DNA of 64,000 nucleotides from a virus (IMGVR_UViG_3300021387_001758:14388-78387), one strand, 5' to 3'; positions 2,573 through 28,347 are shown, counted from the stretch's first letter. The notes: generated from the letters alone by a model not told the origin. Program-made: numbers and translations.

Positions 2573-3287
2573 ATTTTAGAAGGCATAGGTTGAAAAAAAT
2601 ATCTTGTGGGGATAATAGGTTCAGATTTTTGTTTCGTGGAGATAATGTAGGGGCCGTTTTTCTCTAACGCTTTCCAAAACCTTCCTTTTCCTAAAATAAC
2701 CCCGGCCCTTCGAGCGATTGACTTTGTTAAATTTTTAACAACCTCTTCATCAATTCTCACTCAATTTTTCCGCAAGTTACTGTCGCCCAAAAGAACATAT
2801 GTTCTTTTTTCTATTGTCAAAAAATTTTTAGAATTTCGAAAGAATTCCTAAAAGGGGCCGGTCATTTTTTATTCACCCCTCTTCAATAAAAACCACCCCT
2901 CTTTTAGTCGAACAAAGGAGATCCTATTCTGCGGGCCAGGGTCGCGAAAAAGAACATATGTTCTTTTATTTAGTCCGGACTTTGTTAAATTTTTAACAAA
3001 GTCGTAGTCCGGACTTTGTTAAATTTTTAACAGGTGATCGTCTTATCTTTGGGACGTTTTAGTCCGGCCTTTGTTAAAAATTTAACAAAGTCCCGCGCGA
3101 GTTGGGGGGCCAAACACTTTAGCGCATTAAAGTAGTAAAGCGAACCTCTTCATTTTGTATTGTGTATACAGTATACAAGGACAAAAAAATAAATTAAAAA
3201 GATAATAAAAAAATAATAAAAAGGGGTTGACAAGTTATAGTATCCATGCTATTATATATATGTAAGAAAGAGAGAGGAGAAAAGGAA

Positions 3288-3698
3288 ATGACAAAGGCTT
3301 ACTACTTCGATATGGACGGCGTGCTCGCAAACTTCCATAAGGCATATAAAGAGGATAGAATGGTTGCTCTTAAGAGAGATAAGATGGCGAACCTTGAACC
3401 GTTCGAAGCAAACGTGAAACTCGTTCGCAACCTTATCGCACATAACGAAGTAGTATATGTACTCACTAAGGCAGCCAACGAAGAGGCGATGGAAGGCAAG
3501 ATTGAATGGCTTGCAAAGTACGTTCCTGAGATGGATAAAGAACACTTCATTTGCATCGTAGGTCATGGTAAGAAAGTTGACTTCATTCGTGAAGATGGCG
3601 TACTCGTTGATGATGATATGAAGAACCTTAAGCCGTGGGCAAAGGAAGGACACGAAGTATACTACGTAGAAGAAAAGGGAATGGAAGTAGTATTCTAA
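3288..3698 (+). CDS. HAD-superfamily phosphatase, 5'(3')-deoxyribonucleotidase-like
   Basis: YFDMDGVLANF motif I and LVDDD motif IV; start moved to the RBS-preceded ATG. Confidence 0.75.
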   Translation: MTKAYYFDMDGVLANFHKAYKEDRMVALKRDKMANLEPFEANVKLVRNLIAHNEVVYVLTKAANEEAMEGKIEWLAKYVPEMDKEHFICIVGHGKKVDFIREDGVLVDDDMKNLKPWAKEGHEVYYVEEKGMEVVF

Positions 3699-3873
3699 AG
3701 ATAGAAAGAGGGTAGATAAAAGGTTTACCCTCTTCATTTATAGATAGAAAATAGATAGATAAATAGACAGTGAAAAAAGTTTAACTAATTTGTAAAAAGG
3801 GGTTGACAGTACCTCTTCATTGTGGTATATTATAGTTAAGGAAAGGGAAGATAATTGAAAGGAAGGTAAACAA

Positions 3874-4050
3874 ATGAGGAATATAAACACTGAAAACATT
3901 ATTATAGCAATTACAATAATTGCGGCAATTATCGGAACAATCATTGGTATTATTGCAATCGTAAACGGACAGATAGTAGACAGTGAAACAGTTAGCCCCG
4001 CCAACCCAGCAAGTCCCGTTCATCAGTTAATGAAGAGTGTAATGTATTAA
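3874..4050 (+). CDS. Small membrane protein (58 aa)
   Basis: Manual ORF MRNINTENIIIAITIIAAIIGTIIGIIAIV..., RBS GGAAGG, own promoter and terminator. Confidence 0.65.
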   Translation: MRNINTENIIIAITIIAAIIGTIIGIIAIVNGQIVDSETVSPANPASPVHQLMKSVMY

Positions 4051-4308
4051 AGAAGTCGAAAGACTTCTTTTCATTTACCAAGGGACGAACATACGTTCGC
4101 ACCAAGCGAACATATGTTCGTCTACTGCGGGCGGCCGCGCGCACTTTAGCACGTTAAAGCATTAAAGCATTAGTATCGAGTTTGTTTGTTAATTAACAAA
4201 CGACATATTTATACATTGAAATGAATATTTATTTTTTTAATTTGAGGGTTGACAAATATATTCAGTTGTGGTATATTATAATTGACGAAAGGAAAGGAGA
4301 AAACACAA

Positions 4309-5052
4309 ATGACAAAACTAATATTCGATACTGAGACTACTGGACTGGATAAGCCGTTCTGTTACAATGTGGGCTATATCATTGTTAATGATGAGGGTAT
4401 GGTAGAGGTAAAGAAAGAGTATGTATGCGAGCAGGTATGGCATAATCCAATGCTATTTACTACTGCATACTATGCGAACAAAAGACCAATCTATGTTAAC
4501 AGAATGAGAGCAAGACAGATAACAATGAAGAAATTCGGTTATATCTGTCAAGAGATGATTAGAGATATTGAGCGCTATAATGTTACAATGGCTTTTGCTT
4601 TCAATAGCGACTTTGACGAGAAAGTGTTCGACTTCAATTGTGAATGGTTCAAATGTAATAATCCTTTTGATAATGTGGAAATTAAGGATATTAGAGGTTT
4701 CGTTCATCACTTCTTAATTGATAACGAGTTTAAAGCATTTTGCGAAGAACACGAACTGTTTACAGAATGTGGTAACTATTCCACCACAGCCGAAACAATG
4801 TATAGATATATAACTGATGATAATACTTTTGAGGAAGAGCACACGGCGTTAAGTGATAGCATTATTGAGTGGGAAGTATTGAAGAAATGTATTGAAAGGG
4901 GCGCTGATACTACAGAGAATTATAAAGCGTATCGCTCAATTAAAAGAGATACCGAAAAGGTATTAACAATTGATAATAAAGGCGATATATATACAATTCC
5001 TTGTAAAGAGTATAAAGTTTATAAAAGCAAAAATAAAATTGTAATTAAATAA
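4309..5052 (+). CDS. DEDDh (DnaQ-like) 3'-5' exonuclease
   Basis: FDTETTG, AFNSDFD and HTALSD motifs. Confidence 0.8.
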   Translation: MTKLIFDTETTGLDKPFCYNVGYIIVNDEGMVEVKKEYVCEQVWHNPMLFTTAYYANKRPIYVNRMRARQITMKKFGYICQEMIRDIERYNVTMAFAFNSDFDEKVFDFNCEWFKCNNPFDNVEIKDIRGFVHHFLIDNEFKAFCEEHELFTECGNYSTTAETMYRYITDDNTFEEEHTALSDSIIEWEVLKKCIERGADTTENYKAYRSIKRDTEKVLTIDNKGDIYTIPCKEYKVYKSKNKIVIK

Positions 5053-5148
5053 AAAAGTTTTGAAAAAGGGGTTGACAAACCCCTTTTTCCATGTTATTAT
5101 ATGTATGTAAGAAAGAGAGAGAGTTAAAAAAAGAAAGGAAGTAAAAAA

Positions 5149-5349
5149 ATGAAGTTCTTTAAGATGATGAAGGCGGCGGTAATGATTGGTAAAATGTTCA
5201 GCGATGAGGAAAAAATCAAAGAGTTAATCGACGAATACTTTGCCGAAACCGGATTAACAGTCACTGTTGAAGAGGTAAAGGCAAACGATTCAGAAAAAGT
5301 CGACTGGTTTGCGGAATGGGTTTCTGATAAGGTTATCGCACAACTTTAA
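5149..5349 (+). CDS. Hypothetical protein
   Basis: ORF with RBS and its own promoter. Confidence 0.65.
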   Translation: MKFFKMMKAAVMIGKMFSDEEKIKELIDEYFAETGLTVTVEEVKANDSEKVDWFAEWVSDKVIAQL

Positions 5350-5452
5350 AAAATAAAATAAAAAAATAAGCGAAAGGGGTTGACAAAACCCCTTTTGTAT
5401 TGTATTATAATTATAGAAAGAGAGAGGAAGAAAAGAAAGAGAGGTAAATAAA

Positions 5453-5611
5453 ATGACAAGAAAGATGGTAGAAGAAAGAATGAAATTCGTTGAAGAAAGA
5501 CTTTTCTATATCGCGATGGTAGATATGCCGACCGCAAGAGATAAAGAACTTGAAAGAGAATTTGAACACGAACTCAAAGGACTTAAAGAACAGATGAAGG
5601 CGTTCGGTTGA
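5453..5611 (+). CDS. Hypothetical protein (52 aa)
   Basis: Manual ORF MTRKMVEERMKF..., RBS GAGG. Confidence 0.6.
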   Translation: MTRKMVEERMKFVEERLFYIAMVDMPTARDKELEREFEHELKGLKEQMKAFG

Positions 5612-5841
5612 CGGACGCTTTTTTATGTCAACCAAAAGAACATATGTTCGTCCTGGCGCGGGCGCGTCCACTTTAGCACACTAAAGCGTTAAAGTGTAGA
5701 TCTTTCGGGCGCGCTTGTTAAAAATTTAACAAAGTTCCTCTTCAAAAAATTTTAAATTTTTTAAAATAAATACTTGACAAATAAATATATTTTATATATA
5801 ATATATATAGAAAGAGAAAGGTAAAAGAAAGGAAAATAAAA

Positions 5842-6285
5842 ATGACTAAAGCAATTTACTTCGATATGGATGGAACAATCGCTAACCTTTACGGAGTTGA
5901 AAATTGGTTAGATATGCTTATCAATGGAGACGAAACACCATACAGAGTGGCGAAACCGATGATAAAAATGAATGTACTTGCAAGGTACTTAAACAAGTTA
6001 CAGAGACATGGTTATATAATCGGAATTGTTAGTTGGTTGTCTAAAGGTGGAAACACAGAATATAATAAAAAAGTAACAGAAACAAAAATCAAATGGTTGC
6101 ATACTCACTTGAAAAGTGTTGAATGGAACGAAATAAAAATCGTTGAATACGGAACACCTAAAGAAACGATTGTAAACTATCCAAAAGGTATTCTGTTCGA
6201 TGATGAAAAACAGAATAGAAAAAATTGGAAAGGTAAAGCATATAAAGAAAATCAGATTATGGAAGTGTTGAAAGCGATTGCATAA
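5842..6285 (+). CDS. HAD-superfamily phosphatase (paralog of 3288-3698)
   Basis: YFDMDGTIANL and ILFDDE motifs. Confidence 0.75.
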   Translation: MTKAIYFDMDGTIANLYGVENWLDMLINGDETPYRVAKPMIKMNVLARYLNKLQRHGYIIGIVSWLSKGGNTEYNKKVTETKIKWLHTHLKSVEWNEIKIVEYGTPKETIVNYPKGILFDDEKQNRKNWKGKAYKENQIMEVLKAIA

Positions 6286-6370
6286 AATCGCTTTCAACCT
6301 TAAAAAAGGTATTGACAAGTTAAAAATTATATGCTATAATAAAAGCAGATAAAGGAAAGGGGAAAAGAAA

Positions 6371-6664
6371 ATGACACAGAGTATTATGCAGTTGGCGGAA
6401 TTATTAGACGAGTGGAATATTCCTTATGAATTAACTGACGATGTATGCGGAAACGAAAATAATCAGTTATGGTATCCTAACTATAAACATAATATTTGTG
6501 ATGTAATTTGTCACGAATACAGTTACGGCGGAAAAGATGGCTTACTTGAAATAATGGGTTTAGTCCCTGAAGAGGTCGGCGATGATGTAGAAGGGTATTT
6601 AACAGTTGCGGAAGTATTCCACAGAATTCTGCAGGACTATTGCGAAAATAAAGTAAAAAATTAA
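6371..6664 (+). CDS. Hypothetical protein
   Basis: ORF with RBS and promoter. Confidence 0.65.
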   Translation: MTQSIMQLAELLDEWNIPYELTDDVCGNENNQLWYPNYKHNICDVICHEYSYGGKDGLLEIMGLVPEEVGDDVEGYLTVAEVFHRILQDYCENKVKN

Positions 6665-6755
6665 AAAGTTTTTTTCTAAAAAGGGTTGACAAACCCTTTT
6701 TTTCATGTTATATTATATATGTAAGAAAGAGAGAGATAAAAGAAAGGAAAAGAAA

Positions 6756-6929
6756 ATGGCTTACGTAGAAATGTTCGATTATGTGCTTTCTGTAGAACAG
6801 TATGAACGCGAACGCGCGCAGTACCACGAAGAATGGTTAGCGATGGATGATTGGGACCGTTCATGGTATGATGATGAAGAGGAATTCATCGAAGACCGTT
6901 TCCATTCCGCTTGCTATCCGGATGACTAA
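6756..6929 (+). CDS. Small acidic hypothetical protein
   Basis: MAYVEMF... after RBS; D/E-rich. Confidence 0.6.
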   Translation: MAYVEMFDYVLSVEQYERERAQYHEEWLAMDDWDRSWYDDEEEFIEDRFHSACYPDD

Positions 6930-7227
6930 AGAAAAGAAAAGTAAGCCGCAAGGCTTATTTTTTTCTATCCATCAAAAGAACATATGTTCGGGCGCGGCCG
7001 GCCGCACTTTAGCGCATTAAAGTAATAAAGTGCGCGACTTTCGCCGTCGATTGTTAAATTTTTAACAATTGATCCTATATATATATTATAATTCTCTTCC
7101 CATTATATCATACCATACAAGAGAGATAATGTCAAGGGAAAAATTAAAAAAAATTTGTTAAATTTTCCCTTGACAGATTAAAAAACTCATGCTATAATAA
7201 AGACACAAAAGGAAAGGAGAGTAAAAA

Positions 7228-7464
7228 ATGAAAGCATTTGTTACGAAAGCAAACTCGGATTATTGGTACAAAATTAAAGAATTTGACACGATGGAAGATA
7301 TTGCAAAATTTATGAAAGAGGTTGAGTGCGGATTAATTATTGAAGAAAATGATTATACTGACGATGTACTTTTTGAATTTTGGGACGGAATGAAACAGGA
7401 AGACATTCCGATTATTAAAGAATGTGCTTTACATATCACTATTTACAATGATTATGTAGAATAA
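7228..7464 (+). CDS. Hypothetical protein
   Basis: ORF with GGAG RBS and promoter. Confidence 0.65.
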   Translation: MKAFVTKANSDYWYKIKEFDTMEDIAKFMKEVECGLIIEENDYTDDVLFEFWDGMKQEDIPIIKECALHITIYNDYVE

Positions 7465-7678
7465 AAATTCTGATAAAGAGAAAAGAGTTAGTCTTTACTA
7501 ACTCTTTTCTTTTGCGCGTCCCTCTTCAAAAAAAAACTTGACAAAATAAAAAAAATATGATATAATATATATAGAAAATAAAAAAGAAAAGAAAATTTGA
7601 AAAAAAATTAGAAAAAGGGTTGACAAACAAAATTTGAGTGGTATAATAATAGTAGAAAAAGAGAAAGGAGAAAAGAAA

Positions 7679-8035
7679 ATGGCTGTTAGTAGAAAAGTAG
7701 AAAGAGAACTTTTGAGAGAAGAGTATTTGAACAAACTGATTGAGTACTTTAAAGCCGATGAAGATGTTTTGAGAGTGAAAAGTAACGAAATCGCATTTCC
7801 TGTAGTTGGTTGTAACGATAGTGAGGATTTTATCGTAATTACAGTAAAAGTGCCTACGGGTGCAAACAAAGGTACAGAGCCTTACGATGGTTACGAACTT
7901 GCCGAAGAATACGAAATGAAGTTGAAAGAGAAAGAACAGAAAAAGAAAGAAAAGGCAATCGCAAAAGAAAAGAAAATCAAGCGTGACGAAGAAGTCAGAC
8001 GCAAGAAAAAGGAAATCGCCGAAAAAGGAAAATAA
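7679..8035 (+). CDS. MAVSRKVERE-family protein with lysine-rich C-terminal tail (paralog of 13361-13720)
   Basis: Clear sequence similarity to 13361-13720 (VLRVKSNEIAFPVVGC, KVPTGANKG.EPYDGYE.AEEYEMKLK). Confidence 0.75.
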   Translation: MAVSRKVERELLREEYLNKLIEYFKADEDVLRVKSNEIAFPVVGCNDSEDFIVITVKVPTGANKGTEPYDGYELAEEYEMKLKEKEQKKKEKAIAKEKKIKRDEEVRRKKKEIAEKGK

Positions 8036-8123
8036 AAAAAATAAAAAATAAAAGAGAAAAGGGGTTGACAAAATCCCTTTTTTCATATATAATATAATTG
8101 TAAAGAGAAAGGGGAAAGAAAAA

Positions 8124-8306
8124 ATGAAAAAGAAATACAGACTGAATAAAGTAAAATTTATCCGTTTTATCTGCTTTACAATTATGCTTTTAATCATCGG
8201 TTGGTTCATGGTTTCATACATTGAAATTCTTTGTAAGAATATCACAGAAAATCCGACTTACAGCGACTGGAATTTTATCTTTGTTGCACAAAAACTTTTG
8301 AAATAA
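8124..8306 (+). CDS. Small membrane protein
   Basis: Hydrophobic segment FICFTIMLLIIGWFMVSYI. Confidence 0.6.
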   Translation: MKKKYRLNKVKFIRFICFTIMLLIIGWFMVSYIEILCKNITENPTYSDWNFIFVAQKLLK

Positions 8307-9159
8307 TCACCTTTTACCTCCTTTTTTACAATATATGGAAAAGGTCACCACTGAGTGGTGACTTTTTCCGCTCTTCAAAAAGAACATATGTTCGCCTCCG
8401 GCGCCGGACCGGAGATTGTTAAAAAATTAACAATTTCGGCACCGCGCACTTTAACGCTTTAACGTGGTAAAGTGTACGCAGACGGGCGCGCCCGCTTTAG
8501 CGCGCTAAAGTGGTAAAGGATTGTACTAAATAAAAAACATTAAAAAAGGTATTGACATTTAGGGCGGGCGGGTGTATACTATAATTGTTCCAAGGGAGGG
8601 ACAAACGAAAATAAAAAAAATAAAAAAAGTTTGAAAAATCCCTTGACAAATCAAAGCCAATGTGCTAATATATACTTGAGGGTAGGAGAGTTAAGGGTTT
8701 ACCTCACTACAAAGTAGCAAGCAGTCGCAAGTACAAGCACTACCGAAAAAACCCGAAAAAAGTTTAAAAAAAGTGTTGACAAACTAAAGCAAATGTGCTA
8801 ATATATAATCAAGGAAAGGGAGATACTTCTGAGACTGTTCCCCAATACCGAAAGGCAAGAGAACTGTGAGCCAAATAAAATTTGTAGCCGCATAGGAAGT
8901 ATCACCCGAAATCCTAAAAAAATCTAAAAAAGGTATTGACAAACTTGAAAAAGTATGTTAATATATAAATGTCAAGAGGGTCGTGGAGAGGTCGCCCCAC
9001 GAAGTAGCGTAAGAGGATAACACACAGACCTAAATCGATAAGTGAAAACCTCTTGACAATATTACAAAAGTGTGATAATATATAATCACAGAGAGGGAGA
9101 CAGGAACTCCCAAAGGTAACTAAAAAGGGTCACGACCAACGTGAGAAAGTAGGTACACT

Positions 9160-9501
9160 ATGACTAACAGAGAATTCTTCGAAATGGTAATGAATGGTAA
9201 CGTAACTGACGAGGTTAAGGCTCACGCTGAAATGTCGATTGAGAAACTCGATGCGCGCAACGCAAAGAGAGCATCTCAGCCGTCAAAGAGAGCGATTGAG
9301 AACGAACCTATCAAGGCTAACATCAGAGAGTATCTCGCTGATAAAGAGCCGACTACGGCAAGCGAAATTGCCAAGGGACTTGAACTGACTGTTCAGAAAG
9401 TTTCCGCACTGTGTAGACAGATGGTAAATGATGGTATTCTCACCGTTACCGAGGTTAAGGTAAAGGGAAAGGGCAATCAGAAAGCGTATGCTATCGGTTG
9501 A
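9160..9501 (+). CDS. Winged-helix DNA-binding protein, paralog 1 of 3
   Basis: TASEIAKGLELTVQKVSALCRQMV wHTH-like segment; similar to 12643 and 14729. Confidence 0.7.
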   Translation: MTNREFFEMVMNGNVTDEVKAHAEMSIEKLDARNAKRASQPSKRAIENEPIKANIREYLADKEPTTASEIAKGLELTVQKVSALCRQMVNDGILTVTEVKVKGKGNQKAYAIG

Positions 9502-9794
9502 CAATAATTCCCAGCCGGGAAGAGAGAGAAAATCTCTCTCTTCCTTTTTTTACCATTCCGCGGTTAACAATAACAGGTATTATGTCAACCGCGACAATAA
9601 TAATATTATTGTCAACCGGCCAAAAATCTTTATCCACAGATTGTTAAATTTTTAACAGGGCGGCCGGCCGCGCGCACTTTAGCGAGTTAAAGCGTTAAAG
9701 GATCGAGCCAAAAAAATAATTGGAAAAAAGTACTTGACAAGTCCTCTTCATTATGGTAATATATACTTGTAAGAAGGAGAAAGGAGAAATAAAA

Positions 9795-9986
9795 ATGACT
9801 TGTACTGAATGGAATAAAGGGATTAAGTTCCTCACTACTGCAGAGGTAGGCGCGTGGGTTGACCACGAAGACCGCACAGTTATTATCGAGGAGATGTGCG
9901 GAGGCAGATATTTACTCCTCGACCGCAAAGAAGTTTGCGGGGTGACCGATTCGGTCATCGAGGCGATGTCATTCCTTAGGGGATAG
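9795..9986 (+). CDS. Hypothetical protein
   Basis: ORF after GGAG RBS. Confidence 0.55.
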   Translation: MTCTEWNKGIKFLTTAEVGAWVDHEDRTVIIEEMCGGRYLLLDRKEVCGVTDSVIEAMSFLRG

Positions 9987-10140
9987 GCAACCGCCTTTTT
10001 TATTAACCAATGAACGAACGTTCGCGCGGCCGGCCGCGCGCACTTTAGTCTGCTAAAGCATTAAAGGATCGAAAAAAAGTACTTGACAAATCCTCTTCAT
10101 TATGGTAATATATGGGTAGAAAGAGAAAAGGAGATAAAAA

Positions 10141-10314
10141 ATGAAAGTGATTTTTGCAGGGTATCTTATTGTAGTCTTTTCCCTTGGCGTTCATGGGATT
10201 TTTTATGATAAAACCGATAAAAACGGAAATTTTAAAGTAAATTGGCCTTTTGGTTTATTTCTTTTCTTGTTTGGACTTACTCCCATAATTGCGAAAATAT
10301 GTAATTTAATTTGA
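10141..10314 (+). CDS. Small two-TM membrane protein
   Basis: Manual ORF MKVIFAGYLIVVFSLGVHGIF..., GGAG RBS. Confidence 0.55.
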   Translation: MKVIFAGYLIVVFSLGVHGIFYDKTDKNGNFKVNWPFGLFLFLFGLTPIIAKICNLI

Positions 10315-10383
10315 AATTGCACTTGACAAGTCCTCTTCATTGTGATATACTTATTATAGAAAGAAAGGAAAGGAGAAAGGAAA

Positions 10384-10551
10384 ATGAAAACGTACTTATT
10401 TGAAGATTTTGAAACGGGTGAGAGATTCTTTGTTGAAGAGGAAACACCGGAAAAGGCAATTGCAGTTGCCGATGAATATTTTGACCACGCTATTTTCATG
10501 TGGGAAGTATCCGAAGAATGGGCGGACTTGGCAGGATTTGACACTTACTAA
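10384..10551 (+). CDS. Small acidic hypothetical protein
   Basis: Manual ORF MKTYLFEDFETGE..., RBS. Confidence 0.6.
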   Translation: MKTYLFEDFETGERFFVEEETPEKAIAVADEYFDHAIFMWEVSEEWADLAGFDTY

Positions 10552-10655
10552 AAAAAATTAAAAAAGTTTTGAAAAAGGGTTGACAAGTTCAACCCTTTAT
10601 GGTAATATATAATCGTAAGGAAGAGAGAGTTAAAAAAAAGAGAAAGGAAAAAGAA

Positions 10656-10847
10656 ATGATGTACTTAGTAATTTTTATCGAAGAATACGTTGGCTACCAC
10701 TTTGACGAACACACCAAGTTTTTCAAGGATGAACAGTCGGCAAAGGAATATTGCCAGAAATTAAACGCCGAATTTGCCGAAGAAAATCATTGTTCGGTTG
10801 AAGATTTAGGTGACTACTACACGGTTGAGTGGGTTAAGGAAGGTTAG
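10656..10847 (+). CDS. Hypothetical protein
   Basis: ORF after RBS. Confidence 0.6.
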   Translation: MMYLVIFIEEYVGYHFDEHTKFFKDEQSAKEYCQKLNAEFAEENHCSVEDLGDYYTVEWVKEG

Positions 10848-11085
10848 AAAGGACTAACCCACCAAAAAGAGGGCAACCTCTTTTTTTTTGTTCTGCCGGC
10901 GAACATACGTTCTCGGCGGCCGCCCTCGCGCACTTTAGCGTAGTAAAGTGGTAAAGTGGACGGATCCGGCGCCCGCGCATAAACATACATGAAAATGTAT
11001 AAATATTTTTTTCAAAAAAGTATTGACAAAATTGATTATATATATTATACTATAATGGGGAAGTATGCCCAGGCGTAAAAGTGCG

Positions 11086-11109
11086 AATTTTCTGAATTGT
11101 CAGAAAATT
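11086..11109. promoter_or_regulatory. Tandem overlapping CodY boxes
   Basis: AATTTTCTGAATTGTCAGAAAATT = two AATTTTCWGAAAATT matches overlapping by 6 bp, 20 bp upstream of a -35. Confidence 0.7.
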
Positions 11110-11199
11110 AAAACTTTTTATTTTGGGGTTGACAAATTCCGTTCTATCCCTTATAATAGTAACTGTAAGGTAAAGAGAAAAGGAAAGGAACGAAACAAC

Positions 11200-11865
11200 A
11201 TGAAAATCGACAAAAGAAAAAACTATTATCTGACAATCGACACGGAAACGGCAAACGGATTTGATGACCCGATTGTATACGATTTAGGCGGATGTATACA
11301 TGACAAGAAAGGCAACGTAATGGAAACATTTTCCTTTATCATTTACGAAACCTTTTGCGGAATGAAAGATTTAATGCAGAGTGCCTACTACTCCGAAAAA
11401 ATTCCGATGTATCAGAAAGAAATTGACGAGGGAAAAAGAAAAATCGTAACCTATACCACCGCCAAAAGATATATCAATGCACTTTGTAAAAAGTACAATG
11501 TCAAGGCAATAATCGCCCACAATATGAGATTTGATTATAGGGCAACGACACGGACGCAAAGATATATCACGAAATCAAAAGTCAGATTTTTTCTTCCGTA
11601 TGGCGTTGAATTGTGGGATACAATGAAAATGGCAAATGATACAATTTGCAAACAGAAAACATATATCAAGTGGTGTAAAGAAAACGGATATATGACAAAG
11701 AACGGACAAGTCAGAAAAACGGCGGAAATCCTTTACAAGTACATTTCAGGCAACTGGGATTTTGTGGAAAATCATACAGGACTTGAAGATGTGCTAATCG
11801 AAAAGGAAATCTTTTCCAAGTGTATGGCACAACATAAGCCGATGAGAAAATTATGTTTTGACTAA
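11200..11865 (+). CDS. DEDDh 3'-5' exonuclease (paralog of 4309-5052)
   Basis: IDTETANG, AHNMRFD and HTGLEDV motifs. Confidence 0.8.
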   Translation: MKIDKRKNYYLTIDTETANGFDDPIVYDLGGCIHDKKGNVMETFSFIIYETFCGMKDLMQSAYYSEKIPMYQKEIDEGKRKIVTYTTAKRYINALCKKYNVKAIIAHNMRFDYRATTRTQRYITKSKVRFFLPYGVELWDTMKMANDTICKQKTYIKWCKENGYMTKNGQVRKTAEILYKYISGNWDFVENHTGLEDVLIEKEIFSKCMAQHKPMRKLCFD

Positions 11866-11948
11866 AAAAATTCTAAAAAAGGGGTTGACAAAGTCAGCCC
11901 CTTTTGGTATTATAATTATAGAAAGAGAGAGAAAGAAAGGTAAGAAAA

Positions 11949-12101
11949 ATGTATATGGTATGGGTATTTGATGAAGATTTATATGATGATGTGTTGATTT
12001 TTGAAGGGTCATATGAACAGTGCCAAGAGGTAGTAGCCGAAGGGCGCGCAATCGGTGAGGACCCGTATATCGTAGCCAGCGAGGACTACTACGAGGACTA
12101 A
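11949..12101 (+). CDS. Small acidic hypothetical protein
   Basis: Manual ORF MYMVWVFDEDLYDD... Confidence 0.55.
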   Translation: MYMVWVFDEDLYDDVLIFEGSYEQCQEVVAEGRAIGEDPYIVASEDYYED

Positions 12102-12642
12102 GCCGAAAAGGATAAGCCGAAAGGCTTATCTTTTTTTTTGTTCTTAAAAAGAACATATGTTCGCGGCGGGCCGGTGGCGCGCACTTTAGTCTGCTAAAGC
12201 GTTAAAGCGATCCGCGCCGCTTGTTAAAAATTTAACAATCGATCCGGTCCGCCGATTGTTAAAAAATTAACAAAGATTTTTTTCAAAAAGGGGTTGACTT
12301 TTTCCCTATGTGGGTATATACTATAATTGTCAAGGGGAGAGGAAGCCGAGGGACTCACGAGGGCGCGCACTCCACGAGAGAAGGAAAAAAATTCTCGAAA
12401 AAAAATAAAAAAACCCCTTGACACTATCACAAAAATGTGATAATATATAATTGACCCAAGGGGAGAGGTTAAAAACGAAAGTAGTAAAATATTACAACCC
12501 CGCGGGTGAAAAAAAGTTTTAAAAAGTACTTGACAAGATAGACAAAAGGTGCTATACTTAAGTCAAGGAAAGGGGAAAGACAGGAACTTTCCCAAAGGTA
12601 AATCTAAAAAGGGTTGTGACCAACACAAGAAAGAGGTGTCTT

Positions 12643-12987
12643 ATGACAAAGAGAGAATTCATGGAAATGGTTATCGCTGAGGTTACTAACGCAGAACTCA
12701 AGGCTTTTGCCCAGTCTGAAATCGAAAAGATGGACGCGCGCAACGCTAAGAGAGCCGAAACGCCTTCCAAGACGGCAATCGCTAACGAGCCTATCAAGGC
12801 ACAGATTGTCGAATTCCTGAAGGGTTGCGAGGAAAAGGTTACCGCTTCCGCTATCGCTTCCGAGGTTGAAATCTCAACGCAGAAGGCTTCCGCCCTTTGC
12901 AGACAGTTGGTAGCAGATGGTGTTCTGACCGTCGCAGATGTGAAGGTTAAGGGCAAGGGTACACAGAAGGGTTACGAAATCGCGTAG
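12643..12987 (+). CDS. Winged-helix DNA-binding protein, paralog 2 of 3
   Basis: TASAIASEVEISTQKASALCRQLV. Confidence 0.7.
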   Translation: MTKREFMEMVIAEVTNAELKAFAQSEIEKMDARNAKRAETPSKTAIANEPIKAQIVEFLKGCEEKVTASAIASEVEISTQKASALCRQLVADGVLTVADVKVKGKGTQKGYEIA

Positions 12988-13360
12988 CCTAACCCAAGCC
13001 GAGGAAGGGAAAAATTTTCCCTTCCTTTTTTTACCATTCAGACGAACATATGTTCGTGGCAGAAATTGGAAGAACATATGTTCGCGAACATACGTTCGCG
13101 GTCGATCTGGTCCGGACTTTGTTAAAAATTTAACAATCGGGGCCGGCGCCGCGCACTTTAACACACTAAAGTGCTAAAGTCTTTCGATCCGGCGCGCGGT
13201 TTACATAATATTATTATCGTTATGCGGTGCGGTTTACATAATATTATTATCGTTACGAAAAAATCCGAAAAAAATTTTTGAAAAAGGGTTGACAAATTGT
13301 GTTCTATCCCTTATACTATATATAGAAAGTAAGAGTTGAGGTTAAGGAAAGGAGTTAACT

Positions 13361-13720
13361 ATGGCAGTATCGCGCAAGGTAGAAAGAGAAATCATCCGCA
13401 AACAGTATCTCGAAATGGTAGCCGAATTCCTCAAGGAAAAGGGTGAAGATGTTCTCCGTGTTAAGTCCAACGAAATCGCTTTTCCAGTCGTTGGATGTGA
13501 AGATAGCGAAGATTTTCTCGTTATCACTTTCAAGGTGCCGACTGGCGCCAATAAGGGAATGGAACCGTATGACGGTTACGAAATGGCGGAAGAGTACGAA
13601 ATGAAACTCAAAGCCAAAGAGGAAAAGGCGAAAGCCAACGCCGAAAAAAAGGCGAAGAAAATCGCTCGCGACAAAGAAATCAGAGCGAAAAAGGCAGAAA
13701 TTGCCAACAAGGGAAAATAG
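13361..13720 (+). CDS. MAVSRKVERE-family protein (paralog of 7679-8035)
   Basis: Sequence similarity; GGAG RBS. Confidence 0.75.
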   Translation: MAVSRKVEREIIRKQYLEMVAEFLKEKGEDVLRVKSNEIAFPVVGCEDSEDFLVITFKVPTGANKGMEPYDGYEMAEEYEMKLKAKEEKAKANAEKKAKKIARDKEIRAKKAEIANKGK

Positions 13721-14035
13721 CCATTTTCTTCCAGAGGGAAGAGGGTCGGTTGACCCTCTTCTTTTATTGTAAACCGCGCAACAATAATAATATTATGTCA
13801 ACCACGAACATATGTTCGCGGCAGCCGAATTTCAAAGGCGAACATATGTTCGCGGCCGGCCGTAGTTGTCCACTTTAACACACTAAAGCGATAAAGTGCG
13901 CGCCGGCGGGCGTCCACTTTAACACGTTAAAGTAGTGAAGTGCAGAAATCCGGGCCGCTCGTTAAATTTTTAACAAAGTCAAGTTTTCTGGCAACTATTC
14001 CGAAAATTAGTTTTTTAGGAATAGTTACAACCTCT

Positions 14036-14083
14036 TCACTATATATAGTATATTTCCCTCTTCAATACCACTATATATAGTAT
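14036..14083. promoter_or_regulatory. Tandem NrdR-box pair
   Basis: CACTATATATAGTA at 14037 and 14069 (32-bp period). Confidence 0.65.
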
Positions 14084-14219
14084 GTTTTGGTCGTGCCAAC
14101 TATTCCGAAAAAATGCTTTATCGGCATAGTTATACCGCCGAATTGTCAGAATATTCCAACTATTCAGAATTGTCAGAATATTCCAGCTTTTCGCTTTAGC
14201 GTACTAAAGCGTTAAAGCG

Positions 14220-14465
14220 TTGTCAAATTTTAAAATTTTTCCAGGAGCTGCGAAAGAGCTGCGATCGAAAATTTTTTTCACGGCCGTGGGGAGCTGCGAT
14301 TTGACTTTTTTATTTCGCATCCAGGAGCTGCAAAAAATTTGACTTTAAAAGTCAAATTTCTTTTATAAAATTCAAGGAGCTGCGCTTTGGAAATTTGACA
14401 AAAAAAGTCAAATTTTTAAGGAGCTGCAACTTAGAGCTTTTGGGAATTTGACTTTAAAAGTCAAA
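14220..14465. repeat. Alternating GGAGCTGC direct repeats and TTTGAC-N7-GTCAAA palindromes
   Basis: GGAGCTGC at 14244, 14290, 14324, 14376, 14420; palindromes at 14338, 14394, 14447 (also 15195). Confidence 0.9.
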
Positions 14466-14728
14466 TTTTCAGCGCGCACCCGCACGAACCTCTTCAAATT
14501 AAAATTTGAAAAAGCTCTAAAAATCTTTTATAATATATATAGAAAGTGAGGGAAGAAAAAAATAAAAAGCTCCTCCGCTGAAGAGGAAAGGGCAAAAGAA
14601 ATTTTGACAAATCCTCAAAAATCTTATATAATATATATGTAAGATGAAGAGAGGGAAAAGTAACTTCCTTCTAAAGTAAAAACCATAACGTAACTGGGTG
14701 GTGACCTACACCAGAAAGAGAGTACAAA

Positions 14729-15070
14729 ATGACTAAGAGAGAAATGATGAACCTGATCGCTAACGGAACTATCAATGAAGAGGTTATGGCTTGGGCTGTC
14801 GGCCAGATCGAGAAGATGGATGCGGCTAACGAGAAGCGCAGAAACTCCGTTTCTAAGAAAGCGCTTGAGAACGCTCCGATCATCGACAGAATCGTGAACG
14901 AGATCCTCGGTGAGGAACCGATGACTGCTACTGATGTAGCTGGAGTTCTCGGAGTTTCTGTCCAGAAAGCATCTGCACTCCTGCGCACTGCCGTGAAGGA
15001 AGGTAGAGCTGCTGCCGAGGACGTGAAAGTTAAGGGCAAAGGCACTCAGAAGGGGTACACTCTCGCGTAG
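14729..15070 (+). CDS. Winged-helix DNA-binding protein, paralog 3 of 3
   Basis: TATDVAGVLGVSVQKASALLRTAV. Confidence 0.7.
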   Translation: MTKREMMNLIANGTINEEVMAWAVGQIEKMDAANEKRRNSVSKKALENAPIIDRIVNEILGEEPMTATDVAGVLGVSVQKASALLRTAVKEGRAAAEDVKVKGKGTQKGYTLA

Positions 15071-15119
15071 TGCCGCGCGAGCTGTAGTAAACGGCTGAAG
15101 AGGGGAAATCACCCCTCTT

Positions 15120-16290
15120 CTTTTTATTTTATACGTATACTTAGACGTATTAGAATACGTTTGAGTATTATTTTTTTAACTTTTAATAGGAAAATTTGAC
15201 TTTTTAAGTCAAATTATTAATAATTTTAAACTTTTTTAAAGAAAAAATTTGATTTTAGTCGATGTGTGCGGCACCCACCTATTTCTGACCATACCAACTT
15301 CTTTCATAATCCTCCAACTCCTTTCAAAACCCCTCAACTTCTTTCAAAAACACGCAACTTCTTTCATTTTCCCCTTCTGAACTACCCCCTTCTCCGAGAT
15401 CTACTGCGCAGGACCACCGCCCTCCCATGCCCCGTGGCAGTCTACCTCCCTATAACGTATTACTAAACTTCTACTTATACGTAAACTTATACGTAACAAC
15501 CCGTTACCAGCTGGGTTATCCTTAGTCGTATACGTATACTTATACGTAGACTTATACGTTTTACCGTTACCCTTTTCCTACCTTTTTCGTTACCCTTTTC
15601 CTTATCCGTTTACTTATCCTTTTTTGTTACCTTTTCCGGTACATTTCCCGTTATCCTTTTTCGTAAACCCTTTCCCGGTACCTTAAACATATACGTATAC
15701 GTATACGTTTATCGTATTCGTTTTCGTAGAGGTAGAAAATAAAAAAGCTCCTTCCGCTAGAGGAAGAAGCTAAGTTAATCGTAGTAGTTGACCGTTACGG
15801 CTCCCTTGTTTTTCCCCACCGTTGGTGGTAAAACCTGCGGGAGCTTCACAACTAGTAGAAGGTTTTTAGATTTGAGGTACCTTAATATTATACGTTTATA
15901 CGTATAAGTATATGTATACGTATATTTATATTTTTTCCTTATACGTATAATAAGTGATTTTAGTTAAAAGAAGCTACAATTTTTTTCGTAAAACTGCGCG
16001 AGTCCGAAATTTTTCTGCAAAATTTTTTGGAAAATTTCTGCAAAATTTTTTGGAAAATTTTTTGGAAAATTTCTGACGCTGGAAATTTTTTGGAAAAAAT
16101 TTTTTTGGAAAATTTTTTGGAAAATTTTAAGCCAGGGAAATTTTTTGGAAAATTATTTTCCCAAAATTTTTCCCAAAATTATTGATATACGTAGACTGCG
16201 CGCTGTCAAAAACCTACTGATTTTCCCAAAATTTTTTGGAGAATTTTTTGGAAAATTTTTGATTGCGCGCAGTCGAAATAAAAAAGGAAG
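15120..16290. repeat. Non-coding repeat island between convergent gene blocks
   Basis: Blocks of CAACTYCTTTCA, TATACGTA, GTTACCCTTTT-like and TTTGGAAAATTT repeats; central hairpins at about 15735-15850. Confidence 0.85.
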
Positions 16291-16304
16291 CTACAAAGCT
16301 TCCC

Positions 16305-24340: not shown

Positions 24341-24415
24341 TGGCGGGAAGGATAGGACTCGAACCTACAACCTCGTGCTTAACAGGCACTTGCTCCACCA
24401 TTGAGCTACCAACCC
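24341..24415 (-). tRNA. tRNA-Asn(GTT)
   Basis: Cloverleaf, loop CTGTTAA, CCA. Confidence 0.92.
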
Positions 24416-24425
24416 ACGCTCAAGT

Positions 24426-24566
24426 CTATTCAGACTGCGCGCCTTCAAGATTTCTAATCTGTCTCTTCAGTTTCCTCACTACACCAGAACTCTCACCGTT
24501 CTTTCCGTTCGACTGAAGAAGATGCAGCCTATGTTTAAGACCTTCAATAGATTTTCCCTTTGCCAT
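24426..24566 (-). CDS. Small basic protein (46 aa)
   Basis: Manual ORF MAKGKSIEGLKHRLHLLQ..., AAGGAG RBS. Confidence 0.6.
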   Translation of the reverse strand: MAKGKSIEGLKHRLHLLQSNGKNGESSGVVRKLKRQIRNLEGAQSE

Positions 24567-24614
24567 AAAATAAACTCCTTTCTTAAAGAGCAAACACCCT
24601 TTAATAAATATATA

Positions 24615-25200
24615 ATTAAGAGTCTTTCAACTTACTAACTACTAACGCCACTATATTTGACTAATGGGGAGACATACCCAAGCAATAAGGAGCGACCCTA
24701 TTACTATATGCCCCGCTTGCGCCAAGCCCATAGAGGACTGATTACCTCTACCTTTCAGGTGATATTCGGCAATTTTTTAGAAAAGCAATCTCTCTATCTT
24801 CCTTGCTTCATACCAAATAAATTAATATGCTTGAGTCTTCGCAGATTTACCCTACTCGGAGTTGACATACAAACGGTTATACACAGATTTCTCTGCTTCA
24901 ACTGCAAAACGAATTATTGGCATTTCTTAGGTTTGCCCCTGGGCAGCCAACCCAAAACCTAACTAAGATTCGGCGTTTGCTATTAACAAGCGCTTCTATT
25001 ATTTCGCCCGTTCGTATTCTGTCTTTAGCTCACGTTAGCAGTAGCGCTACACCTTTGGTTTCGGCTTCCAACCTACACGATAGTCGTCACCGCCTATCGC
25101 ACAGCCCCTTAACGAGTATCCCCGTTTCTATGGACTGACCGCCCTTTCGGGTTGTTTCGGTGTACCTCAGCACTGCAATCAGCAACTCTTCACTGAGTTC
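24615..25200 (-). ncRNA. Candidate large structured ncRNA (about 580 nt; ROOL/GOLLD-like context)
   Basis: No credible ORF; several GNRA-capped hairpins; sigmaA promoter upstream; lies within the tRNA array. Confidence 0.55.
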
Positions 25201-25423
25201 TTATTTATATATTTATTAAAGAGTGTTTCTCCTTTCTTTACCTTATATAAATATTATACCGAAAATTTGGATTTTCGTCAAATTTTCAGAAATATTTTTC
25301 TCTAAAAATTTTATCTTGTTTAAAGGCTTTTGTTTATCGGTACGCCACAAGAGCCTTAACTCCCGCCACTACCCTACGTTTACCGTACAGACCCTCTCAA
25401 GCGAGCGCCAGTTAGTGGATTGA

Positions 25424-25498
25424 TGGCTACGGCGGCTGGGTTCGAACCAGCGAATGACGGAGTCAAAGTCCGTTGTGTTACCACTTCACCACGCCGCA
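25424..25498 (-). tRNA. tRNA-Gln(TTG)
   Basis: Cloverleaf, loop CTTTGAC. Confidence 0.92.
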
Positions 25499-25643
25499 AT
25501 ATAAGTGGCATATTTTCCCCATATGCCGGAAGGGCGAGTTTAACGGCCCTCGCGCCGCCTATTGATTATGCCCTCAACAGGATAAGAGCTGTGGTGCGCC
25601 TGACTGGAGTCGAACCAGCACGATCTCACAATCGAGGGATTTT

Positions 25644-26381
25644 CCTGCTACTCCATGTTGCCATGGCCGCGTCACCGCGTTGTAGTCTGGACTTTCTCTT
25701 CACCATGCGTTAATACGTTTAGGTGCGCGCCGTCAAGTCTCTACACGTTCCTCATTTGAGGCTTCGCTCGGGATTGTCCACGTGGGAGTTTCCCCGAATT
25801 TGACGCGATTCACATGGGAGTTTCCAACCCAAGTGCTCTATTTTATATTTTTGGTTTTATATGTATCAGTAAAATAATGACAATTAGGACAAAGTATTTC
25901 GAGATTATCTAAATGATTATTATTTTTATTGCCATCTTTATGATGTAACTCTAATGGAATAGGATTACCCAACCACTCAGTCAAGCCACAACGGCAACAT
26001 TTTTTCTCGAAAAATCCTTCGGCAAATAATCTATTTCTTAGTTTAAAAGAAGTAATTGCTTGTTCATTATTCAAATATTTTTCTATTGGAGTTCGATATT
26101 TTCCAATATTTTTTGTGTGTGCTTGACCAGTAAAATGAGAAGTATCAAAATTATATTTCTCACACATCTCTTTTATAGTCTTAATAGCAGAACCACCATC
26201 TGGATTATATCCTACTTTATTAGCTAACTCTCTAAAAGATTCACTCTCAGCACACATTACTGATAACTGTTCAACAGTAAATTTTTCATACTTTTTCATA
26301 CCTTTTCTCCTCTTATCTCTCTACTTATAAGTAGAAAAAAGGCAGACTAAATATAAAAAATTAAACCAAACCTATATCGAA
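25644..26381 (-). mobile_element. Group I intron (738 nt) with HNH ORF in the 5' (P1-loop) region
   Basis: AAATTCGGGGAA, AATCCCGAG, GTAGAGACT and AAGAGAAAGTCC core elements all downstream of the ORF; terminal G. Confidence 0.88.
25838..26299 (-). CDS. Intron-encoded HNH homing endonuclease
   Basis: CCRC...LELHHKDGNKNNN...LCPNCH. Confidence 0.85.
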   Translation of the reverse strand: MKKYEKFTVEQLSVMCAESESFRELANKVGYNPDGGSAIKTIKEMCEKYNFDTSHFTGQAHTKNIGKYRTPIEKYLNNEQAITSFKLRNRLFAEGFFEKKCCRCGLTEWLGNPIPLELHHKDGNKNNNHLDNLEILCPNCHYFTDTYKTKNIK

Positions 26382-26422
26382 AAGTCCCTTGCGTCTGCCT
26401 ATTCCGCCACAAGCGCGCAGTT

Positions 26423-26671
26423 CTATTCATCAAAGAACTTCCAAATCGGATTCACAAAATCATAATCCCGATTAGAAACTCTATAATTGCCAAACAACTT
26501 TACCAACTCGTCAAGCGTTCCACCGATTTTCAAATAATCTTTCATGGCTTCAAAAGCCTTACTCTGCGCGGCGATCTTATTCTTTTCCTTGTCTTTGAAC
26601 TGCTTTTCTGCAGCAAGGCAATCCTCAACTGTATCGTACTTCTTTCCGGTAATTTCACTTACAACATACAT
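26423..26671 (-). CDS. Hypothetical protein (82 aa)
   Basis: MYVVSEITGKKY... after GAGGAG RBS. Confidence 0.65.
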   Translation of the reverse strand: MYVVSEITGKKYDTVEDCLAAEKQFKDKEKNKIAAQSKAFEAMKDYLKIGGTLDELVKLFGNYRVSNRDYDFVNPIWKFFDE

Positions 26672-26705
26672 ATTGGTTTTCTCCTCACTAACAAGACAAT
26701 AATAC

Positions 26706-26786
26706 TGGTGGAGTCGATGGGAATCGAACCCATGTCCGAAACACTGCACTTTGGCCTTGATGCCCCGTCGAAACCATTCCGACCCC
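26706..26786 (-). ncRNA. ssrA: Miniature tmRNA: tRNA-like domain only (81 nt)
   Basis: 5' GGGGTCGGAATGGTTTCGACGGGG and 3' TTTCGGACATGGGTTCGATTCCCATCGACTCCACCA; G3:U70 pair; short loop in place of the mRNA-like domain. Confidence 0.8.
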
Positions 26787-26844
26787 ATAGAAGAAGGAGC
26801 TGAACGCTCCTTTCTTATATACCATATAGACAATGGTACGTAGG

Positions 26845-27265
26845 TGGTGAAACCTAAGAAATAAAAAATGGTTTAATTCTGATTCCGTAAGGTGGGTCGC
26901 AGTATCCTTCTGCGACTAAACCAATAGGTTACTTTGCCTTCTTATTTGGTCAAGGTGCGTTTGCCACAAGGCCACATATCAATCAATGAAAGCATAGTCG
27001 AACTAACTAAATCTTATGAGACAATTGCCGGTGGTAGTTTACCTATTAAAATCCATGTTAACGCATCTGCTACTGACCATCTGAGTAGCGCAGGGCTTGA
27101 CTTACATCGGCTCAAGCATACCTTGGAGAATTTAAGAACTAATCCTCAACCGCAATTCTCCTTACGATTACGTTCCGTCCGTAGACAACGCTTAGCCAGA
27201 TTAGTAATTTGCTGAATTTATATCGTTAGTCAGCGACTCCGTACACGTTTAGGGTCGAGTAAAGA
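26845..27265 (-). ncRNA. Candidate structured ncRNA block (about 420 nt)
   Basis: No credible ORF; hairpins GCTTGA/TCAAGC, GCTACT/AGTAGC, GTCGCAG/CTGCGAC. Confidence 0.4.
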
Positions 27266-27269
27266 CCAA

Positions 27270-27344
27270 TGGTTGCGGAAGTAGGATTCGAACCTACGAC
27301 TTTTAGGTTATGAGCCTAAATTGCTACCGCTGCATCATTCCGCC
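27270..27344 (-). tRNA. tRNA-Met(CAT), 1:72 mismatch (initiator-like)
   Basis: Loop CTCATAA; G1:A72 mismatch. Confidence 0.85.
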
Positions 27345-27349
27345 ATAAA

Positions 27350-27735
27350 GGAACTTTGGACGCATCCTTAGTTCCTAGGCTTACTCCGAAGAGATAGGCC
27401 TCTATTCTTCATTTGCTACAACTTCGAGTTCGTTCCACGGATCCTTTCTCTATATTTCCGAAATTCTTGTGGTGATCAAATCCACGGTGAGTATTGTTGT
27501 ATCGCATCCGTCCCTTTCGGAGACGCGACCTGTTGCTTCAGGCGACTCTCTCATAGACATTGTTCCGGAACTGCCTATGTTGGATTGTTGTATTTTATTG
27601 CAAACGCACTCCCACTTTACTCAAGGCTTGTGACTTGCACGGCCTAAACCTCTGTTTAAGCTTGATGGCGTGGTTACGTTTAGCATCGAGAGGGGAGAAA
27701 AGGAAAGGAAGTAAGATTTATCTCCCCTCTCTTAA
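27350..27735 (-). ncRNA. Candidate structured ncRNA block (about 380 nt)
   Basis: Follows a TTGACA-N17-TATAAT promoter; 5' hairpin GAGAGGGGAG/CTCCCCTCTC; GNRA hairpin GTCTCC-GAAA-GGGAC. Confidence 0.4.
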
Positions 27736-27786
27736 CTTTCTATATATATTATAGCAAAGTTTTATAATTTTGTCAAAATTTCTTTC

Positions 27787-28017: not shown

Positions 28018-28210
28018 TTATAACCTTCTTTCTTAGTTTAATTTTGAGAGTTGAACGCGGCGTCTCGTTCGGATTAGTGGGAATTGAACCCTTGGCTCTT
28101 ACCTACCATAAGTTTTTAACTTCGAGCCTTCTCTTACTTTTTCCTCTCTCTTAACTTTCTATATATATTATATAAGAAAATTATAAATATTTCAAATTAT
28201 TTTTTATAAA

Positions 28211-28287: not shown

Positions 28288-28347
28288 AAATAATGGGAGG
28301 GGTCCTACATCTCCCGCTTTTCCACAGAACAATTCTCTGGCAGGACC

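Follow-up and report, generated by a model that had tools for sequence, protein, structure and literature searches.

LexA-type boxes at a near-constant distance past intrinsic terminators in the early region of a large uncultured phage clade

In Firmicutes, LexA recognizes the Cheo (SOS) box, for which the consensus sequences CGAACATATGTTCG in Bacillus subtilis (Au et al. 2005, as tabulated in PMC8270828) and TACGAACATATGTTCGTA in Firmicute lexA promoters (PMC2248561) have been reported, and the same Cheo box is used by Clostridia (PMC4234289). Natural Firmicute SOS boxes are usually imperfect, those of Clostridioides difficile often reading GAAC-N4-GTTT, and they overlap or adjoin promoters; in Table 1 of PMC8270828, the ten experimentally supported SOS boxes of SPbeta carry 3 to 5 mismatches. 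Here, we analyzed a 64,000-nucleotide (nt) stretch of viral DNA, IMGVR_UViG_3300021387_001758:14388-78387 (hereafter, the window), which comprises bases 14388 to 78387 of a 78,387-nt IMG/VR virus record that is ~66% complete. Its early block harbors 15 boxes with the same GAAC-N4-GTTC arms and the same extended CGAACATATGTTCG sequence as the SOS boxes of B. subtilis, SPbeta, and the Clostridium recA, lexA, and uvrB genes (PMC8270828, Table 1; PMC2248561; PMC4234289). Unlike those natural sites, however, the phage boxes are packed 15 in 11 kb, lie mostly at or near consensus, and are located outside promoters, past intrinsic terminators.

The tectivirus GIL01, whose host is likewise Gram-positive, bears LexA boxes of that host and no CI. 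In this phage (PMC6182141), LexA acts together with gp7, promoters P1 and P3 contain the boxes and are repressed through them, and GIL01 is temperate and encodes a LexA homologue, gp6. In the window phage, instead, the boxes lie outside promoters, a LexA homologue was not found, and the gene content is of the virulent type.

The pattern GAACATAYGTTC occurs in the window at the 14 positions listed below other than 10012, against a chance expectation of 0.00 matches in dinucleotide-preserving shuffles. Loosening it to GAAC-N4-GTTC adds two sites, GAACGAACGTTC at 10012 and GAACTATTGTTC at 55478, giving 16 sites where 0.7 are expected. All 15 boxes of the early block (2793 to 13851) fall between predicted genes and all fit the palindrome GAAC-N4-GTTC, while no further copy was found in the remaining 14 kb of the record. 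The count of a first-pass annotation of this DNA, 15 boxes with doublets at 4087/4108 and 13806/13840 and a triplet at 13044/13072/13086, was borne out by the scan as 14 copies of GAACATAYGTTC and one of GAACGAACGTTC. Its remark that none was noticed outside the early block holds for all 15 of them but not for the site at 55478, which is located within an open reading frame and is the sole looser-pattern match outside the block. The boxes, to which no strand is assigned, are as follows.

2793-2804: box AGAACATATGTTCT, two flank mismatches; left boundary array, no terminator upstream
2952-2963: box AGAACATATGTTCT; left boundary array, first early -35 element 263 nt on
4087-4098: box CGAACATACGTTCG, 17 nt past terminator stem 4051-4068; first of doublet with 4108
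4108-4119: box, perfect 14-mer CGAACATATGTTCG; second of doublet, 21 nt centre to centre
5638-5649: box AGAACATATGTTCG, 17 nt past stem 5599-5619; next -35 element 124 nt on
6978-6989: box AGAACATATGTTCG, 18 nt past terminator stem 6941-6958
8382-8393: box AGAACATATGTTCG, 17 nt past terminator stem 8343-8363
10012-10023: degenerate box TGAACGAACGTTCG, arms intact, four mismatches to the 14-mer; 14 nt past stem 9961-9996, next -35 element 59 nt on
10901-10912: box CGAACATACGTTCT, 18 nt past terminator stem 10843-10881
12151-12162: box AGAACATATGTTCG, 18 nt past terminator stem 12095-12131
13044-13055: box, perfect 14-mer, 16 nt past stem 13002-13026; first of triplet
13072-13083: box AGAACATATGTTCG; second of triplet
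13086-13097: box CGAACATACGTTCG; third of triplet
13806-13817: box, perfect 14-mer; promoter-less right boundary island, doublet with 13840
13840-13851: box, perfect 14-mer; right boundary island

Measured against the 14-bp CGAACATATGTTCG, four of the 15 boxes have no mismatch, seven have one, three have two, and one (10012) has four, the reference being the Firmicute/B. subtilis consensus. When the extended consensus CGAACRNRYGTTCG is considered, the flanking C is present in 7 of 15 window boxes and the flanking G in 12 of 15, and the centre reads ATAT or ATAC in 14 of 15. By searching with the phage winged-helix protein, we gathered 74 related loci on contigs of up to 170 kb, among which the complete genomes measure 115 to 135 kb; 30 of the 74 hold at least five boxes. 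Over the 331 boxes of the window and these 30 relatives, the preceding base is C in 85% and the following base is G in 72%, with a centre of the form A-T-A-Y, and these flanking and central bases lay outside the search pattern and hence were unselected. Exact boxes are kept in relatives whose coding DNA is only ~70% identical, and in the complete relatives they are restricted to one early region of 0.3 to 16 kb. Since the unsearched flanks follow the LexA consensus and diverged relatives retain the boxes, we regard these as selected LexA-type (Cheo/SOS) sites close to consensus, to which any canonical Firmicute LexA should bind. The first-pass identification of the motif as the Firmicute LexA site is in this way supported both by the flanks and by conservation in dozens of diverged relatives. 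Phass-1 was considered as a cultured box-bearing relative and dismissed, its match lying inside a coding sequence of a code-15 phage and being due to chance.

The coupling of the boxes to terminators and the motifs that occur alongside them go beyond what the first-pass annotation had described. The features on which this coupling rests are the following.

3227-14632, plus strand: early block with ~30 consensus sigma-A promoters (TTGACAA-N14-TGNTATAAT type), small genes, and intrinsic terminators
4051-4071, plus strand: example of an intrinsic terminator (stem plus T-run), directly preceding a box
5599-5619, 6941-6958, 8343-8363, 9961-9996, 10843-10881, 12095-12131, 13002-13026, and 13737-13762, plus strand: other terminator stems

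The early promoters, all on the plus strand, consist of TTGACAA, a 17-nt spacer, often a TGN element, and then TATAAT, and each of them serves one or a few small genes closing in hairpin-plus-T-run terminators. In eight of the nine box-bearing internal spacers, the distance from the 3' end of the terminator stem to the start of the 14-bp box is 14 to 18 nt (in order, 17, 17, 18, 17, 14, 18, 18, and 16 nt), although neither the terminators nor the bases in between are related in sequence. The same arrangement is found across the clade, where 155 boxes have a hairpin and T-run upstream at a median distance of 18 nt (interquartile range, 17 to 20 nt; 96 of 155 at 15 to 19 nt). The first motif after a clade terminator is a box 133 times, motif B 43 times, and motif C 20 times (both motifs are described below), and, counted from the end of the T-run, 99 of those 133 boxes begin 10 to 19 nt on. 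About 58% of the clade boxes have no detected terminator within 75 nt.

With respect to promoters, 274 clade boxes have one downstream; in no case does the box reach into a sigma-A core, and the -35 element follows at a median of 98 nt. Within the window, all ~30 early promoters are free of overlap with a box, the next -35 element lying 59 to 786 nt away, and the two boundary arrays (2793-2963 and 13806-13851) are high-affinity-type sites, as judged by consensus, with no promoter to regulate. The boxes are thus not promoter operators. Lying just past terminators and off promoters, they therefore resemble docking sites for a host protein and not an SOS on/off switch.

The box is one element of a recurrent spacer, whose order is terminator, box, a GC-rich and often palindromic stretch, motif B, motif C, and promoter. 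Box, motif B, and motif C palindromes are all limited to the early block, the two companion motifs being located as follows, with no strand assigned.

3117-14209: motif B, CACTTTAG-N4-CTAAAG followed by extra TAAAG half-sites; ~15 copies, usually after the box in the spacer
2724-13136: motif C, TTGTTAAA-N2-TTTAACAA; ~12 copies, e.g., at 2982, 3016, 3071, 5715, 7051, 12221, and 13119

The trailing half-sites of motif B are one or two direct TAAAG repeats with an 8-nt period (clade consensus, CACTTTAGCGCATTAAAGTGTTAAAGT), and the motif occurs alike in relatives with boxes and in relatives with the palindrome D described below. Motif C is identical to the consensus TTGTTAANNNNTTAACAA of the redox repressor Rex in Clostridiaceae (PMC8457756), and a clostridial host therefore fits; relatives from another source bear a TTGTGAA-N4-TTCACAA variant in place of motif C. 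The stretches separating the motifs are almost pure GC and often palindromic (e.g., GCGCGGCCGGCCGCGCGC) within a genome of ~35% GC, and their composition is constant while their sequence is variable (e.g., window 4120-4143, 10024-10041, and 12163-12183).

The slot occupied by the box can be filled by another sequence. In many box-free relatives we detected a 19-bp palindrome, TTAGACG-N5-CGTCTAA (hereafter, D), in 8 to 19 copies per locus (e.g., L026:5313-13141 and L038:4307-11212), at a median distance of 17 nt after terminators, that is, in the same slot as the box, and just upstream of promoters; in L026, a half-site, TTAGACGTCAAAA, often comes after it. The locus L027 carries eight boxes together with one D module, and this co-occurrence led us to reject D as a lineage-specific LexA motif acquired after a host switch. 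The early regions of L026 and L027 consist of segments 91 to 94% identical interleaved with unrelated ones. Arrays of D are also present on short, phage-like contigs binned into metagenome-assembled genomes (MAGs) of Acutalibacteraceae, Ruminococcus, and Clostridia, which are probably phage contigs and hint at Oscillospirales as hosts of the D lineage. A scan of 185,579 genomes did not support D as a common chromosomal operator, the single scattered matches being near chance level and arrays being found only on short, phage-like contigs. Single chromosomal D sites are located directly upstream of homologous Xre-family helix-turn-helix genes at L155:2820-2880 (in tandem) and L118:3100-3140, both in Clostridiales MAGs, and look like autoregulated operators; these Xre-type genes have no homologue in the phage loci.

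As for the protein that would bind the boxes, the conserved candidates encoded by the phage are three paralogous early proteins.

9160-9501, plus strand: winged-helix (MarR-like) early protein, paralog 1
12643-12987, plus strand: winged-helix early protein, paralog 2
14729-15070, plus strand: winged-helix early protein, paralog 3

They show weak Pfam and PDB-profile matches to MarR-like structures, not to LexA. We rejected them as box binders, since the recognition helix and wing are the same in box-array, D-array, and motif-poor phages; the protein is nearly the same in L026, of the D type, and L027, of the box type. In six-frame searches of the record and five complete relatives, no LexA_DNA_bind domain (PF01726) scored over the cut-off (best E value, 0.01 at 13 bits), although a very diverged LexA homologue could escape this search. 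Six-frame searches of the record and the complete relatives likewise gave no Peptidase_S24 (PF00717) and no HTH_3 domain of CI/Cro-type repressors above cut-off. There is no gene family within 8 kb that all box-rich loci share, the most widespread one being present in 16 of 30 loci and not in the window, and no Pfam match was obtained for the checked families associated with D-type or box-type loci. Because the winged-helix paralogs are excluded and no universal box-linked gene family exists among these loci, host LexA is left as the simplest candidate binder.

The remainder of the record informs on the kind of phage involved. It encodes a terminase, a portal, a tape-measure protein, Dit, and lysins, as well as topoisomerase II subunits, an ATP-dependent ligase, RNase H, and the following.

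24341-29989, minus strand: cluster of 21 tRNA genes
3288-3698 and 5842-6285: two NT5C-like 5'-nucleotidases, within the early block
32523-33185: dNMP kinase, outside the early block

No near DNA match was found among 50,697 phage records, and the portal is 23 to 31% identical to portals of large Firmicute siphophages; on these two grounds, an SPbeta-like prophage and an SPO1-like myovirus were ruled out. The 21 tRNAs, the dNMP kinase, the 5'-nucleotidases, and the ~30 consensus host promoters indicate the build of a virulent phage. Taken as a whole, this is apparently an uncultured, large, lytic gut or rumen phage, best explained as a virulent-type siphophage of roughly 120 kb infecting an anaerobic Bacillota bacterium. 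No relative of the SH3/C39 lysin was found among genome contigs that could point to the host, and a second endolysin, 33 to 39% identical to endolysins of Erysipelothrix, Streptococcus, and Lachnospiraceae phages, gave no host either. The pairing of NT5C-like 5'-nucleotidases with a dNMP kinase is reminiscent of the T5 pre-early dmp gene and of nucleotide salvage after host DNA breakdown. The record begins within a tape-measure-like gene (L006:2-2743), and a second block of tail genes, with a 1,994-amino-acid protein adjoining Dit, is located at window 41176-47160.

Further repeated elements were observed in and beside the early block. Tandem consensus sigma-A promoters, five at 8552-9081 and three at 12294-12558, precede the winged-helix genes at 9160 and 12643. 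At 14036-14083, two NrdR-box-like palindromes (CACTATATATAGTAT) are spaced 32 nt apart in the usual tandem NrdR layout, and CodY-box-like words occur at 11095, 14141, and 14168 (AATTGTCAGAAAATT once and AATTGTCAGAATATT twice), both being too few for statistics. At the right end of the early block, a promoter-less island (14230-14480) contains four iteron-like units, each consisting of AGGAGCTGC and then the palindrome AATTTGAC-N7-GTCAAATT, which may mark an origin or an element of the injection-stop type. Finally, 1.2 kb of non-coding, repeat-packed DNA at 15100-16300 is a candidate origin, terminus, or packaging region, with four copies of CAACTTCTTTCA, runs of TATACGTA, GTTACCCTTTTCC-like units, and about ten AATTTTTTGGAAAAT palindromes at 16009-16257.

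From the observed sequence match, conservation, and positional coupling, we infer binding by LexA and a roadblock effect. Our preferred explanation, tentative and in our estimation somewhat short of an even chance, is that host LexA serves as a roadblock or insulator coupled to the terminators. Host LexA, which would be present before any phage protein, would dock on the boxes, and the bound dimer would stall RNA polymerase on the U-tract and keep read-through polymerases, or polymerases sliding after termination, from reaching the next strong sigma-A promoter. Densely packed early units would in this way be separated by an insulator reinforced by protein, which would loosen upon LexA cleavage during SOS; the extra copies in tandem and at the boundaries would make the block stronger and incidentally raise the LexA-binding load.

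Intrinsic terminators release RNA ~7 to 9 nt past the stem, and the edge of the box therefore lies ~8 to 11 nt beyond the release point, in downstream DNA that the polymerase occupies. Polymerases stall roughly 10 to 14 nt ahead of a bound protein, a distance known from other proteins and extrapolated here to a LexA dimer. Blockage by DNA-bound protein has been shown for LacI, both for elongating RNA polymerase and for RNA polymerase sliding after termination (PMC11364550). A LexA roadblock would account for the fixed distance, for the box being the first motif, for its exchange with another palindrome, and for the restriction of the arrays to the region transcribed by host polymerase. Several points weigh against it. 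Among the terminator-less boxes are the second and third boxes of tandem groups and the boundary arrays (2793, 2952, 13806, and 13840), which a roadblock leaves unexplained and which fit a sponge better. Every unit already has a good hairpin terminator, so that the need for reinforcement is assumed, and roadblocks can be overcome by polymerases fired from strong promoters. Recombination that spreads whole spacer modules could be part of the reason for the constant order and spacing, the extrapolated stall distance may not suit a LexA dimer, and modified bases in the phage DNA, if present, might abolish LexA binding. Extended to the whole clade, the roadblock would become a composite punctuation, in which an intrinsic terminator is followed 17 to 18 nt later by a host-repressor site, a LexA box here and other palindromes in sister lineages, so that proteins the cell already contains would provide insulation responsive to host state (SOS and perhaps, via Rex, redox), and the arrays would be multi-repressor sponges after replication; we regard this wider proposal as possible but doubtful. 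An RNA-level role of the box was set aside, its hairpin being only 5 bp and located past the terminators.

The arrays may instead be a sponge, a role that the first-pass annotation had also raised, whereby replicating phage genomes, with hundreds to thousands of sites, would titrate host LexA and so bring about RecA and repair gene expression and division arrest with no DNA damage, the Rex-type sites acting likewise on the redox regulon. Such titration seems to us somewhat unlikely, yet much is consistent with it: many sites are stronger by consensus than natural operators (11 of 15 have no or one mismatch, against the 3 to 5 of SPbeta), the boxes stand off promoters and include tandem doublets, a triplet, and boundary arrays that lack promoters, ~12 perfect Clostridiaceae-type Rex sites lie alongside, and decoy sites titrate transcription factors in engineered systems (as cited in PMC8457756). 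What a sponge does not need is a fixed position, whereas the first box lies 14 to 18 nt past the stem and is nearly always the first motif, and close relatives fill the slot with a non-LexA palindrome, which suggests that the slot outweighs LexA physiology. In addition, a single infecting genome brings only 15 sites, and the 5'-nucleotidases and dNMP kinase suggest a T5-like breakdown of host DNA that would make derepression of the host pointless. The palindrome that dominates the slot, box or D, differs from one lineage to another, as co-evolving phage factors would predict, and this favors the view that the boxes are bound by a phage-encoded or other non-LexA protein of LexA-like specificity, for example a middle-gene product shutting off or punctuating early transcription, with host LexA binding being incidental or mimicry. 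A DNA-binding, truncated LexA homologue is described for GIL01 (gp6; PMC6182141), most early proteins are unannotated, and such a factor could be encoded in the third of the genome missing from the ~66% complete record. We nevertheless consider it unlikely, given that no LexA_DNA_bind domain over cut-off, S24 peptidase, or HTH_3 was found in the record or complete relatives, that the only conserved DNA-binding candidate, the winged-helix protein, is the same in box-type and D-type phages, and that the best box-linked family within 8 kb reaches only 16 of 30 loci; the 14-position match to consensus would also be a large coincidence, and host LexA would compete anyway.

The remaining two explanations give the boxes other functions. 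The spacers might be repeated cassettes for recombination or shuffling of early genes, comparable to the cassettes of promoter and stem-loop in T4-type phages, and protein binding would then be of lesser importance. Relatives do have highly mosaic early regions, as in L026 and L027, and the spacers repeat a terminator-motif-promoter layout, but conservation is limited to the short palindromes, both the terminators and the GC-rich DNA of the spacers varying in sequence and length; the remaining identities of 12 to 19 bp are too short for efficient homologous recombination, and the unselected flanks obey the LexA consensus, all of which makes this explanation very unlikely in our view. The first-pass annotation had suggested, among other functions, that in a prophage or carrier state the boxes hold the early genes silent and release them upon DNA damage. 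Such a classical SOS-gated switch, in a prophage, plasmid prophage, or carrier state, would parallel GIL01, in which host LexA stands in for a phage CI repressor (PMC6182141), and the sites are dense and strong enough to suggest it. The promoters speak against it, however, since their cores are neither overlapped nor adjoined by any box (overlap in 0 of 274 clade boxes) and ~30 consensus promoters would stay free. The gene content argues against it as well: the check for a CI or integrase elsewhere in the genome, which the same annotation had proposed, gave none above cut-off in four complete relatives, nor did these four contain a LexA/S24, HTH_3, or CI/Cro-type gene or any tyrosine or serine recombinase (integrase or resolvase), although a plasmid prophage would need no integrase. 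As the 21 tRNAs and nucleotide-salvage genes suit a virulent phage, we deem silencing by LexA highly improbable.

Terminator-coupled, promoter-distal LexA-box arrays of consensus strength appear to be a new feature, common to a large uncultured clade. This clade of gut and rumen phages of 110 to 135 kb keeps consensus LexA sites at a fixed post-terminator distance, in a slot that another palindrome can occupy. If LexA binds the boxes and reinforces termination, they would constitute a portable, repressor-gated terminator or insulator design useful to synthetic biology and a new route by which DNA damage alters lytic infection. Arrays that turned out to be sponges would provide the first case in nature of DNA decoys acting on SOS control. 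The composite punctuation, if real, would add a novel, protein-assisted class to the bacterial terminators and give lytic phages a new means of reading their host.

To our knowledge, host-regulator sites on lytic phages are known in few cases (Spo0A in phi29, CtrA, and LexA in GIL01), all of them promoter operators, and no natural LexA sponge has been demonstrated in a phage. The Spo0A boxes of the virulent Bacillus phages phi29 and Nf (PMC2731898) and the CtrA sites of Alphaproteobacteria phages, discussed as "lytic deferment" (PMC9437464), are instances of lytic phages with multiple host-regulator sites that tie infection to host state, and the window phage shares with them the multiple consensus sites. 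Spo0A and CtrA sites, however, overlap early promoters or origins and repress them, whereas the window boxes sit past terminators and off promoter cores. Engineered transcription-factor decoy arrays (Wang et al. 2021, as cited in PMC8457756) also consist of many consensus sites off promoters, in a synthetic setting. Being sponges, such decoys require no positional rule, unlike the window boxes.

We know of no description of a roadblock design with LexA at bacterial intrinsic terminators or as a repeated feature of phage genomes. In eukaryotic Pol I termination, Reb1 or TTF-I is bound at a fixed short distance past a T-rich release element. The window boxes share with this type of roadblock termination the same fixed short gap between a T-rich element and a protein-binding palindrome, placed between transcription units, where bound LexA may exert a comparable effect on termination.

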